Shown: piece by piece, positions 15,001 to 18,000 of the stretch
Layout: every line of letters begins with the position of its first letter
Numbering within the stretch: position 1 is the stretch's first letter
DNA from: a virus
Lineage: Duplodnaviria; Heunggongvirae; Uroviricota; Caudoviricetes
Direction: 5' to 3' (one strand)
Length of the DNA stretch: 20,780 nucleotides
Virus record (IMG/VR): IMGVR_UViG_2609460218_000015
Coordinates: 1-20,780 of that record
Program-made: the position numbers

Positions 15001-18000
15001 TCCTGCCACCAGCATCATCCAGGATAAGGCGAAAAAGGTGCTGGCGCTGAAAGTGGATCCGGAGTCGCCGGAGTCTTTTATGTTACGCCCAAAACGTCGC
15101 CGCTGGGTTAATGAAAAGTACACGCGCTGGGTTAAGACACAGCCGTGTGCATGTTGTGGAAAGCCTGCTGATGATCCCCACCACCTGATAGGCCACGGTC
15201 AGGGTGGTATGGGTACAAAAGCGCATGATCTCTTTGTGTTGCCTTTGTGCAGAAAACACCATGACAAACTGCATGCGGATACCGTGGCATTTGAAGATAA
15301 GTATGGTTCCCAACTGGAGCTGATATTTCGTTTTATCGATCGCGCGCTGGCGATTGGTGTGCTGTCCTGATTTTGTGGAGAAAGTTGATGCGTGATATTC
15401 AGATGGTTCTCGAACGCTGGGGGGCATGGGCGGCAAGTGGTAACGCCGGGGTGGACTATTCTCCGATAGCTGCTGGATTTAAAGGCCTTTTACCATCCAC
15501 CGCTAAACCTCGCCCGGCCTGCAGCGATGATGACGGCCTTATCATCGAAAACTGCCTTACGCGCCTGAAGAAGAAAAAACCGGACGAGTATTCGCTGCTG
15601 GTAGCTCATTATCTGCTGCGCATATCAAAAAGGCAGATTGCCAGAACAAAAAAGAAGAGCGAAAAGGCAATACGAATTGAGATGCAGATTGCTGAAGGAT
15701 TTATTGACGGATGTCTGTCGATGCTGGGTGTAAGGCTGGAGATGGACGACTGGCTGCCCAAAAAAGTAAAAAATGATTAGCGCGGTCCGCAAAAAGTATG
15801 TCAGTATGTTAAGAGTGGTTACTACGCCACACAGCTTAAACCCGCCGATGAGCNGGTTTTTTTGTGCCTGAACGTTAAATGCGCTGGTGGTTGTGAATGC
15901 CGACTGCGGCGGTATTTTGGCGTGACGGCGCAGGTGCCGTACACGGATGTGTGGACGTATAAACCGGTGCAGTACTATCCAGGGAAACATCCGTGCGAAA
16001 AACCGGCAGAAATGTTGCAGCAGATAATCAACGCGAGCAGTCGTCCGGGAGACCAGGTTGCAGANTTTTTTTATGGGCTCAGGTTCAACGGTAAAAGCGG
16101 CACTGGCGCTCGGGCGTCGTGCGATTGGCGTTGAACTGGAGACCGGACGTTTTGAGCAGACAGTCAGGGAAGTTCAGGATTTAATCGTTTGAAACGGATG
16201 AGATTGCAGAATTAATTACGCACCATTATTATTCTGCTTCCGGCCCTTTAGCTCAGTGGTGAGAGCGAGCGACTCATAATCGCCAGGTCGCTGGTTCAAA
16301 TCCAGCAAGGGCCACCATCACATACCGCCATTAGCTCATCAGGAAAGAGCGCCAGCCTTCGAAGCTGGCTGCGCGGGGTTCAAGTCCCCGATGGCGGTCC
16401 ATTATCTGCATCATGCGTTGTTAGCTCAGCCGGACAGAGCAATTGCCTTCTAAGCAATCGGTCACTGGTTCGAATCCAGTACAACGCGCCACACTTATTT
16501 TCCCTGGCTCGCTTTTGCGGGCCTTTTTTTTTTAAATGTCTCACAATTCAGACGGTTGACTGTTGTCTGGTTTGCGGGGAGTTTGTTAAAAGAAACTGGC
16601 ATGGTGAATCCCCCTGTGCGGAGGGGCAATCAGCGAGTAGGTATATGGGATAATCGCGGATTCAGGTGCTGGTACTGAATTCACCGGGAGGCACCCGGCA
16701 CCATGCAATGGCACATAGCGCCACTCTCCAGCCCCTCTCCGGAGGGGCTTTTCTGTGCCGGATACATCACAGTTTCTGGAACCTTAGGTACTACAGTATC
16801 AGTCAGGGTGCTATATTTTCAGATGTGATGAAAGCCTGTCAGCAGGCAGGGCGTATCGGAAATGACCCAGTAGAGAAAACGTTGACTCAGATACCGGTGC
16901 TGAGTTACCGGGAAACCGGCATCACATGACCGCTATCCTTCCAGGCCCATCCGCTCCGGTGGGCCTTTTTACTGCAGAAAACAGGTTCCCCGTTAAATGC
17001 TATGTTGCTCACAATTCAGTAAGTTGACAGTTGCCTGTCAGACTGGGCATTTGTTAAAAAAATTTCGCATGGTGAATCCCCCTGAGCGGAGGGGCGACTG
17101 GTGACGGTATAATCTCTGATTATCAAAACGAGAATGACGCGGGTTTAGTGGCACCGGGCTGAACTCACCGGGAGGCACCCGGCACCATGTGCATGATGAT
17201 ACAGATACGCGGCTTTAGCCCCTCTCCGGAGGGGTTTTCTTGTGGGCAAAAAAAGCCCGCGCTGGGAGACGCGGGCGGCAAGGAATAAACAATAAAACGT
17301 GAAGTAATATTTCAGCTGGCGAATAATATCCGACAGTAATCACTCTGCGCAATAGCGCGGCCTTTTTCGTATTGCGGGCTGTTGTCTCTCTTCTGCCATT
17401 GTCCTGTAACTTCCGGACTTCAGCCCGCTCCTCATTTTACTCACAATATTATCCCGGCCGGGAGGATTCATGGCATTTAAACACTATGATGTTGTCAGGG
17501 CGGCGTCGCCGTCAGATCTTGCGGAAAAGCTGACACATAAACTGAAAGAGGGCTGGCAGCCGTTTGGTAGTCCGGTGGCCATAACCCCTTATACCCTGAT
17601 GCAGGCGATTGCAGCAGAAGGTGATGTGGTCGTCAGTGGTGCAACTGAGCCGGAGTGGTACTACGTCATCGTACTGGCCGGGCAGTCCAATGCCATGGCT
17701 TACGGTGAAGGGCTTCCGCTGCCGGATTCATACGATGCTCCGGATCCGCGCATTAAACAGCTGGCGCGCCGCAGTACAGTGACGCCGGGTGGGGCTGCCT
17801 GCAGATATAACGATATTATTCCGGCCGACCACTGCCTGCATGATGTGCAGGATATGAGTACGCTGAATCATCCGAAGGCAGACCTGAGCAAAGGGCAGTA
17901 CGGCTGTGTCGGCCAGGGCTTACATATTGCCAAAAAACTGCTTCCGTATATCCCGAATAACGCGGGGATCCTGCTGGTACCATGCTCTCGTGGTGGTTCG

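Follow-up and report, generated by a model that had tools for sequence, protein, structure and literature searches.

The interval between the tRNA cluster and the nanS-p gene of IMGVR_UViG_2609460218_000015, a Caudoviricetes record of which we analysed positions 1 to 20,780 (20,780 nucleotides (nt); the window), probably consists of three tandem, same-strand small RNA (sRNA) genes of the STnc100 family, the family of EcOnc27/sRNA103 and a structural relative of PasD1/PasD2. This judgement covers the favoured explanation as a whole, that is, family identity, gene anatomy and a trans-acting sRNA mode of working. Because the family is a known one, correctly detected, and stands at its usual place in a prophage, the element itself is already known. 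What goes a little beyond the literature searched is the third, divergent member, the shuffled three-unit arrays, a pseudoknot in the 5′ domain, conservation far outside Escherichia and Salmonella, and the assignment of promoters.

Three STnc100 units in tandem

A sequence-only reading of the window had described a tandemly duplicated, structured non-coding element, and the repeat lies where that reading placed it and is far beyond chance. A repeat search returns blocks of 88 nt at 16540/17008 (80% identical) and 31 nt at 16675/17159 (97%), together with terminator hairpins at 16730/17217 (89%), and pairwise alignment reproduces the five blocks kept in order with diverged connectors between them. 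The proposed spacing of 478 bp agrees with start-to-start distances of 468–484 nt. The proposed copy number of two does not hold: three units are present, and "duplicated" is an undercount.

In the Rfam scan that had been proposed as a check, run at gathering thresholds (47 bits, curated, for STnc100), copies 1 and 2 are full-length matches to RF02076 STnc100 (model positions 1–206), at 16570–16760 (136.3 bits, E = 2e-30) and 17038–17247 (161 bits, E = 1e-36), respectively. A divergent third copy, unit M, makes up the "spacer" between them and is matched below threshold in a permissive scan (16799–16972, 30.1 bits, E = 3e-4). Our own covariance model, R1, finds exactly three modules in the window, scoring 94.9, 36.4 and 90.7 bits, the middle score being that of a sequence that formed part of the R1 training alignment. 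The STnc100 consensus helices, namely P1 and the CCCCC/GGGGG, GGGUU.../...AACUC and CCGGG-AGGCA-CCCGG hairpins, are found in copies 1, 2 and M. The suggestion of a late-region sRNA pair stands as to the sRNA family and the prophage late-region world of Tree et al. 2014, and falls as to "pair", the array having three units. An identity with the anti-sRNAs AgvB or AsxR is contradicted, since the AsxR (RF02703) and AgvB (RF02702) models find no match in 17200–17480 at E ≤ 10, nor in 15700–17600 at E ≤ 1; as a positive control, the same library gives AsxR at 88 bits in Sakai Sp5. The element is instead their convergent partner family (EcOnc27 = STnc100).

Anatomy of the units

The units follow a general plan of a putative extended −10 promoter, a 5′ domain of 110–130 nt, a linker of 15–27 nt and an intrinsic terminator. 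In the 5′ domain, hairpin A, a variable hairpin, hairpin C and hairpin B meet at a junction that is closed by helix P1. The linkers are unstructured and copy-specific, being wholly different between copies.

The upstream region and putative promoter of unit 1 (copy 1), read from the sequence, span 16540–16598 (+) and comprise a CTCACAATTCAG boundary block (16540–16551), TTGACT (16556–16561), a −35 element TTGTCT (16563–16568), TG (16584–16585) and a −10 element TAAAAG (16587–16592). The predicted RNA of about 157 nt (16599–16755, +) contains P1 (16599–16606/16699–16706), hairpin A (16610–16626), the pseudoknot (16629–16634 with 16668–16673), hairpin C (16658–16665/16675–16682), hairpin B (16684–16698), the linker (16707–16729) and, from a terminator scan, a terminator stem (16730–16749) followed by a U-tract. 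Unit 2 (copy 2) has its upstream region and putative promoter at 17008–17066 (+), near-identical to what precedes EcOnc27 in Sakai Sp5, with CTCACAATTCAG at 17008–17019, TTGACA at 17024–17029, a −35 element TTGCCT at 17031–17036, TG at 17052–17053 and a −10 element TAAAAA at 17055–17060. Its predicted RNA of about 175 nt (17067–17241, +) is built of P1 (17067–17074/17183–17189), hairpin A (about 17078–17094), the pseudoknot (17098–17103 with 17152–17157), hairpin C (17141–17149/17158–17166), hairpin B (17168–17182), the linker (17190–17216) and a terminator stem (17217–17236) with U-tract from the same scan.

The starts of these RNAs are transferred from PasD2, whose 5′ end, as judged by RNA-seq coverage together with size on Northern blots, is the G of GCAUGGUG / GCAUGGUGAAUCC (741157). 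Transfer of this end to the window gives starts at 16599 and 17067, which place TGtTAAAAG (16584–16592) and TGtTAAAAA (17052–17060) at −15 to −7, and TTGTCT and TTGCCT stand 18 nt upstream of the respective −10 elements. The TGTTAAA motif is also present in the Sakai and Klebsiella units, and across about 85 modules of other genera the last base of a −10-like hexamer usually falls 5–8 nt ahead of P1, with TTGAC often present 17 nt upstream, and a terminator often follows 15–45 nt beyond the domain. We infer that each unit has its own sigma-70 extended −10 promoter and starts at the first base of P1. With the promoters so placed, Rfam model positions 1–29 and part of the first three conserved blocks would be promoter DNA; those blocks, which had been taken as an RNA element, are indeed conserved, though in part as promoter DNA and not as RNA alone. 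Derivation from the late transcript, as had been suggested, is unlikely to be the main route to these RNAs, given a promoter-like site for each unit with a start at the first P1 base.

Between Q and nanS-p the plus strand has six intrinsic terminators, one read from the sequence (15838–15866) and five found by the terminator scan (16506, 16730, 16943, 17217 and 17345). The scan's total for the region is 12 terminator-like sites, where 2.2 would be expected.

Covariation and a pseudoknot in the 5′ domain

Relatives were gathered with the 17-mer of hairpin B, one genome per species, which yielded loci from about 20 enterobacterial genera (including Kosakonia, Enterobacter, Klebsiella, Raoultella, Pantoea, Erwinia, Cedecea, Trabulsiella, Superficieibacter, Atlantibacter and Salmonella diarizonae), as well as chance matches in GC-rich genomes. 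A loosened motif regular expression gave mostly false positives in GC-rich genomes and was replaced by anchored patterns and the covariance model; nhmmer together with our model retrieved 89 modules in 65 loci. When 52 modules are aligned with MAFFT without regard to structure, 85% of cells pair, compared with 38–47% when the partners are slid by 1–3 columns, and both-sided changes occur in 21 of 29 pairs; the observed values were reached by none of 500 shuffles. Compensatory changes are present in each of P1, hairpin A and hairpin C of this alignment. P1 varies yet stays paired, as in CAUGGUG/CACCAUG, GCGGUG/CACCGC, GGUGAUG/CAUCACC, CAGAUG/CAUCUG and GCCGGAAC/GUACCGGC. Hairpin B, which is fixed by the search pattern, was tested on the 14 modules without the exact pattern, in which its stem covaries (CCGUG/CACGG, UCGGG/CCCGA) around a constant A(G)GCA loop. 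Across the roughly 20 genera, the junction and loop nucleotides GAAU, UNNGC, GCG and A(G)GCA are near-invariant and the helices around them covary. Single-sequence minimum-free-energy folds give P1, A, C and B for each of the three window domains.

A pseudoknot joins the strand immediately 3′ of hairpin A to the hairpin C loop. The pairing strands are AUCAGC/GCUGGU in copy 1, CUGGUG/CACCGG in copy 2, UAUCGG/CCGGUG in the middle copy, CUGGUG/UACCAG in Sakai and AAUGAUCGA/UUGAUCAUU in PasD2, and the 57 modules compared hold 54 distinct pairings. Cognate duplexes have a mean of −8.4 kcal/mol against −4.8 kcal/mol for non-cognate ones, a contrast matched by none of 10,000 permutations and conservative because many strands share a CCAG/CUGG core. 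This per-sequence duplex test was used in place of a column-wise test on the MAFFT alignment, in which 47% of cells are paired, a low value because the 5′ strand of the pseudoknot shifts register between sequences. Covariation supports four helices and a pseudoknot in the STnc100-type 5′ domain, for which our literature search found no earlier description of a pseudoknot in STnc100 or PasD. Selection on RNA structure, as the sequence-only reading had argued, is borne out by the compensatory helix changes.

A middle unit that looks maintained

Unit M is preceded by a promoter-like site with the extended −10 sequence TGcTATATT (16809–16817, +), 6 nt upstream of the first P1 base at 16823, and its predicted RNA is about 149 nt long (16823–16971, +). 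It keeps every helix by way of compensatory changes, with P1 at 16823–16830/16920–16927 (AUGUGAUG/CAUCACAU), hairpin A at 16834–16847 (GCCUG-UCAG-CAGGC), the pseudoknot at 16854–16859 with 16894–16899, hairpin C at 16884–16890/16900–16906, hairpin B at 16908–16919 (CCGG-GAAA-CCGG) and a terminator stem at 16943–16966 followed by a T-run; the z-score of its minimum-free-energy fold is −3.7. Two variants (100% and 91% identity) occur in 673 of 5426 E. coli genomes (about 12%) and are never annotated. The 91% variant, from strain CREC-629, keeps the −10 site, re-forms hairpin A as CUGCC-GGAA-GGCGG and changes a U-G pair of the pseudoknot to U-A. It stands within another three-unit array of different order, which has iraM next to it instead of a convergent sRNA. 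Since its elements are kept in altered form and the variant keeps the helices, unit M looks like a maintained member of the family rather than a product of decay. In the CREC-629 array (L124, 1646–1981), iraM, whose product is an anti-adaptor protecting RpoS, lies on the opposite strand after the last unit.

Position in the prophage

The Q gene (15373–15780, Pfam PF06530) is followed directly by a leader with an intrinsic terminator (15790–15866, +), a candidate pR′/tR′ of StxS-like type. Its sequence, TAAGAGTGGTTAC...AACCCGCCGATGAGCNGGTTTTTTT, is near-identical to the post-Q stretch of Sakai Sp5, and the conserved sequence of the E. coli post-Q leader reads TAAGAGTGGTTAC...AACCCGCCGATG.GCGGGTTTTTTT. 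This is probably the pR′/tR′ (StxS-type) unit of the prophage; StxS has been placed 5′ of stx (PMC7873438). An N base at 15853 breaks the post-Q terminator, and another N stands at 16065. The interval from Q to the tRNA genes holds, at 15862–16134 (+), only a C-terminal remnant of an N6/N4 DNA methylase, and a near-identical locus in strain BEC1-S17-ESBL-09 carries a complete methyltransferase of 349 amino acids (aa) and a different Q (273 aa). Three tRNA genes follow at 16242–16491 (+; CAT, Arg-TCG and Arg-TCT), called by ARAGORN, by the Rfam tRNA model and by RefSeq on a 99.5% identical locus. The first of them (16242–16317) is tRNA-Met(CAT) for ARAGORN and tRNA-Ile for RefSeq on an identical gene (ileZ-type, the CAT anticodon being read as Ile after lysidine modification). 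An intrinsic terminator, GGCTCGCTTTTGCGGGCC then T10 (16506–16533, +; terminator scan), ends the tRNA cluster. Beyond the array lie another (17345–17366, +; terminator scan), shared with Sakai Sp5, the nanS-p-type sialate O-acetylesterase gene (17470–19323, +; Pfam SASA, DUF1737 and DUF6645) and, in the Pfam scan of the window, a holin gene at 19396. ARAGORN and Pfam thus confirm that the element lies between the end of the tRNA cluster (16491) and nanS-p (17470).

In Sakai Sp5 the order is Q, a short leader with terminator, tRNA-Ile/Arg/Arg, stx2A, stx2B, an STnc100 unit (208 bits, 75 nt after stx2B), AsxR on the minus strand, a terminator and a nanS-p homologue. Over the stretch that runs from CACAATTCAG...TTGACAGTTGCCTG to the end of the 5′ domain, copy 2 and the Sp5 unit are near-identical, and the window and Sp5 are so again from the terminator at 17345 to the nanS-p start. 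Since copy 2 matches the Sp5 unit, copy 1 and the middle copy occupy the site of stx2AB in Sp5. The earlier placement of the element at the stx-equivalent position is therefore upheld, with tRNAs, stx2AB, STnc100, AsxR and nanS-p in the same frame in Sp5.

Convergent with the array, a minus-strand terminator (GCCCGCGTCTCCCAGCGCGGGC-T7) and a GU-rich 5′ end define a candidate sRNA of about 51–54 nt at 17247–17300 (−). Its fold has a z-score of −3.65, it lies at the AsxR site of Sp5 with no match to the AsxR or AgvB models, and it closely resembles the enteropathogenic E. coli (EPEC) sRNA E2348C_1409.E2348C_1408.IGR (predicted seed CUUGCG), known from RIL-seq, in which interacting RNAs are ligated and sequenced. 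We regard it as a candidate short sRNA that would be a sponge-like positional analogue of AsxR. The same convergent layout follows the STnc100 unit of a Klebsiella grimontii prophage (L042, 4330–4365). A reading of 17300–17366 as a relic of a PasD 3′ end was unsupported by alignment.

The octamer CTCACAAT occurs three times in the window, at 16540 and 17008, the left edges of units 1 and 2, and at 17439–17446, in the nanS-p 5′ untranslated region 31 nt ahead of the start codon. CUCACA is a motif enriched among the RIL-seq targets of PasD, whose seed is UGUGAG. The octamer might mark a recombination boundary or serve PasD-type RNAs of other prophages as a target. Elsewhere in the window (9291–9479, +), Rfam matches to isrK (9291–9367, 62 bits) and, directly after it, the C4 antisense RNA (9392–9479, 81 bits), both overlapping the 5′ part of an open reading frame (ORF) at 9234–10097, recall the P1/P7-type c4 immunity RNA and the Gifsy isrK arrangement.

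Distribution and arrays

Of 5426 complete E. coli genomes, 341 have the whole 1.3-kb arrangement (coverage of at least 80%), with no RefSeq RNA gene there, and as many as 17 places in a single E. coli genome match the query region. Arrays of three units are found repeatedly, their cassettes shuffled. In other genera a Q-type gene (PF03589 or DUF1133) stands on one side of the module and holin/lysozyme genes on the other, and this Q-to-lysis-gene position is kept in Atlantibacter, Klebsiella, Superficieibacter and Pantoea. For annotation the assignment is of use, as RefSeq either leaves these genes out or places pseudogene fragments over them. Plasmid pAPP145_2 of Pantoea sp. App145 (399 kb; L090 947–1991, L066 3113–4488 and L120) carries at least 12 modules, among them one run of six and one of five that lie downstream of a DUF1133 (Q-like) gene in stretches largely free of ORFs.

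Proposed working and alternative explanations

Judging from their relatives, the window RNAs would be made constitutively in the lysogen, independently of Q, and would be bound by Hfq through the terminator and U-tail. The variable linker, at the position of the PasD seed, would serve as the site of trans base-pairing with host or prophage RNAs, and, because the three genes differ in linker and variable hairpin, they would address different targets. As a side effect, the three unit terminators and those at 15838–15866, 16506–16533 and 17345–17366 would exclude Q-unmodified polymerase from nanS-p and the lysis genes, and Q-modified polymerase from pR′ would read through the stack.

A trans-acting, Hfq-dependent role of the window units is likely by this analogy, and several points weigh against it. 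The relatives that suggest the role have different linkers. None of the window linkers (AAUGGCACAUAGCGCCACUCUCC, GACCGCUAUCCUUCC and UGCAUGAUGAUACAGAUACGCGGCUUU) contains UGUGAG, so PasD targets are not transferable. The function of sRNA103/EcOnc27 is known from overexpression only (PMC12711010; PMC7873438), and some EDL933 STnc100 copies have ribosome footprints, with ribosomal coverage up to 3.2 (PMC5331693). A consensus promoter scan calls no plus-strand promoter at the units, which it would miss since the final T is absent from their −10 hexamers. A plain Hfq sRNA has no need of a pseudoknotted 110-nt domain whose loops are near-invariant, and the conservation of this one is left unexplained. 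In pAPP145_2, some modules stand 7 nt apart with no terminator between them, so that multi-module transcripts are likely there, an arrangement more in keeping with a modular binding RNA than with an sRNA that works through a seed.

A modular binding RNA is the subject of an alternative that we hold tentatively, as a minority view: the 5′ domain would be the functional part, a binding module for a protein, ligand or RNA that acts as decoy, sponge, scaffold or sensor, with linker pairing secondary or absent. Four helices and a pseudoknot with near-invariant loops over about 20 genera would be accounted for, as would arrays of three to six modules, the up to 17 matching places per E. coli genome and the pAPP145_2 modules that abut without terminators, like multi-site sponge RNAs. 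Against it, the RIL-seq chimeras of PasD are of ordinary seed type and near the 3′ end, no conserved domain-terminator switch was found in Atlantibacter L020, Klebsiella L042, Sakai or PasD2, and a stable 5′ structure could simply guard against 5′-end-dependent decay. In a broader form, which we put forward with the same reserve, the domain of about 110 nt in STnc100, EcOnc27 and PasD might be an unrecognised module with a partner of its own, carried in Enterobacterales Q-to-lysis cassette arrays, the linker being one of two functional parts. A domain with its own partner would change how an abundant class of virulence-phage RNA, one member of which adjoins stx2, is studied. The units might also act in cis, as a terminator/attenuator stack that sets transcription into nanS-p and the lysis genes and of which the RNAs are by-products; this is unlikely. 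The excess of terminators between Q and nanS-p and the conserved Q-to-lysis position in Atlantibacter, Klebsiella, Superficieibacter and Pantoea speak for it. A terminator, however, needs some 30 nt, which leaves the 110-nt domain and a promoter for each unit unexplained, and the relatives accumulate as discrete Hfq-bound RNAs with trans partners. By inspection, copies 1 and 2 show complementarity between the 3′ strand of hairpin A (GGAGGGGC) and the 5′ strand of the terminator; the same inspection saw none in Sakai EcOnc27, PasD2, L020 or L042, and we treat it as coincidence because it is not conserved in relatives. For the attenuator proposed by the sequence-only reading, we found no conserved antiterminator, nor any conserved alternative pairing of domain and terminator, across the relatives. 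A riboswitch-like antiterminator likewise gains no support from this inspection, the complementarity being confined to the window copies and some modules having no terminator.

The remaining explanations are less probable again. That the window RNAs titrate core-genome sRNAs, as the sponges (anti-sRNAs) AgvB and AsxR do, would suit the genomic neighbourhood they have in common with known sponges and the sRNA–sRNA chimeras in the Pas RIL-seq networks; we consider it quite improbable, because the AsxR and AgvB models have no match, strand, size (157–175 against 51–60 nt) and architecture differ, and the sponge-like candidate is instead the minus-strand RNA at 17300–17247. We give very little credence to each unit being a late promoter pR′ with tR′, analogous to lambda 6S, in which the TTGAC repeats form a Q-binding element. 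The architecture is similar (a constitutive promoter, an RNA of 150–200 nt and a terminator), and so is the Q-to-lysis location in several genera. A separate short promoter-terminator unit nevertheless follows Q directly in the window, Sakai Sp5, Atlantibacter L020 and Klebsiella L042, with STnc100 further downstream, and on this ground we reject the identity; the STnc100 unit of Stx (Shiga toxin) phages lies 3′ of stxB, three copies in a row and internal promoterless modules do not fit, and GTTGACnGTTGnC is not conserved outside E. coli. Synteny contradicts the STnc100 unit as a pR′-tR′ leader. Just as improbable is a coding origin, in which the blocks are remnants of a protein gene or a small peptide begins at the conserved AUG. 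It could draw on the GGGAGG located 9 nt ahead of the AUG in both strong copies, on the ribosome footprints at some EDL933 loci and on the short pseudogene fragments that RefSeq puts at the locus. The GGGAGG is, though, the 5′ half of hairpin B and the AUG lies within the 3′ strand of P1, so that both are base-paired, and the AUG triplet becomes CAC, CGC, CGU and others in other genera; the motif described earlier as a Shine-Dalgarno-like GGGAGG plus AUG is structural. Helix substitutions are compensatory, and the frames beyond the AUG differ between copies, as had been noted in calling the element non-coding. The single ORF of at least 60 aa between the tRNAs and nanS-p (16666–16929, 87 aa) has no Pfam match, in agreement with the earlier statement that the interval holds no convincing ORF. 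Trans-acting sRNA genes of the STnc100 family therefore remain the explanation we favour.

Comparison with known systems

The sponges AsxR and AgvB share with the window units the moron slot of lambdoid prophages and form convergent pairs with STnc100-type genes. They differ in lying on the opposite strand, in their length of 51–60 nt and in having no 5′ domain, whereas the window units are 149–175 nt long and lie on the strand of the late transcript. In Sp3, 4, 5, 9, 10, 11, 15 and 17, Tree et al. found the moron site 3′ of PR′ to hold convergent sRNA pairs, that of Sp5 being EcOnc02/AsxR and EcOnc27 (PMC4104026). StxS and lambda 6S also combine a constitutive promoter with an early terminator in the late region, and the StxS product binds Hfq; they start at pR′ directly after Q, whereas the window STnc100 units are separate and downstream of the tRNAs.

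The PasD RNAs of EPEC E2348/69, with an EcOnc13 homologue in enterohaemorrhagic E. coli, are structural relatives. PasD1 and PasD2, RNAs of about 172 nt, were recovered in Hfq RIL-seq, and their predicted seed, UGUGAG, lies immediately 5′ of the terminator (PMC8550237); according to a preprint, PasD and STnc100 share structure and origin (10.64898/2026.05.13.724894). Common to PasD and the window units are P1, hairpins A, C and B, the pseudoknot, the linker, the terminator and the 5′ end GCAUGGUGAAUCC; nanS-p stands directly downstream of PasD2 as well, and the family has an Hfq RIL-seq profile. PasD2 aligns to both STnc100 models, at 41.4 bits (Rfam, sub-threshold) and 37.9 bits (our model). 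In PasD, on the other hand, hairpin B is altered, the seed is one that the window linkers lack, and the Pas copies are dispersed (Zhu et al.); the preprint (10.64898/2026.05.13.724894) describes them as dispersed, not tandem, and leaves pseudoknot and promoters unmentioned.

Among the closest known systems is EcOnc27. In O157:H7, the STnc100 locus 3′ of stx2B overlaps EcOnc27 (sRNA103) (PMC12711010), an RNA that is Hfq-crosslinked and Northern-positive (PMC4104026, PMC7873438) and whose overexpression raises fimZ and espA transcripts (PMC12711010; PMC7873438). Sequence variants at this STnc100 member adjoining stx2 have been linked to clinical outcome (PMC12711010), and in EDL933, 11 STnc100 loci are transcribed in uninduced culture, one of them confirmed by Northern (PMC5331693). 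The window differs from Sp5 in having three units in a row, the middle one sub-threshold, and no stx, and its variable hairpin, linker and terminator differ, so that targets need not be shared. The likeness lies in copy 2, whose promoter and 5′ domain are almost base for base those of Sakai Sp5, and in an array that stands upstream of nanS-p and, as EcOnc27 does, converges on a short minus-strand RNA, a candidate in the window.

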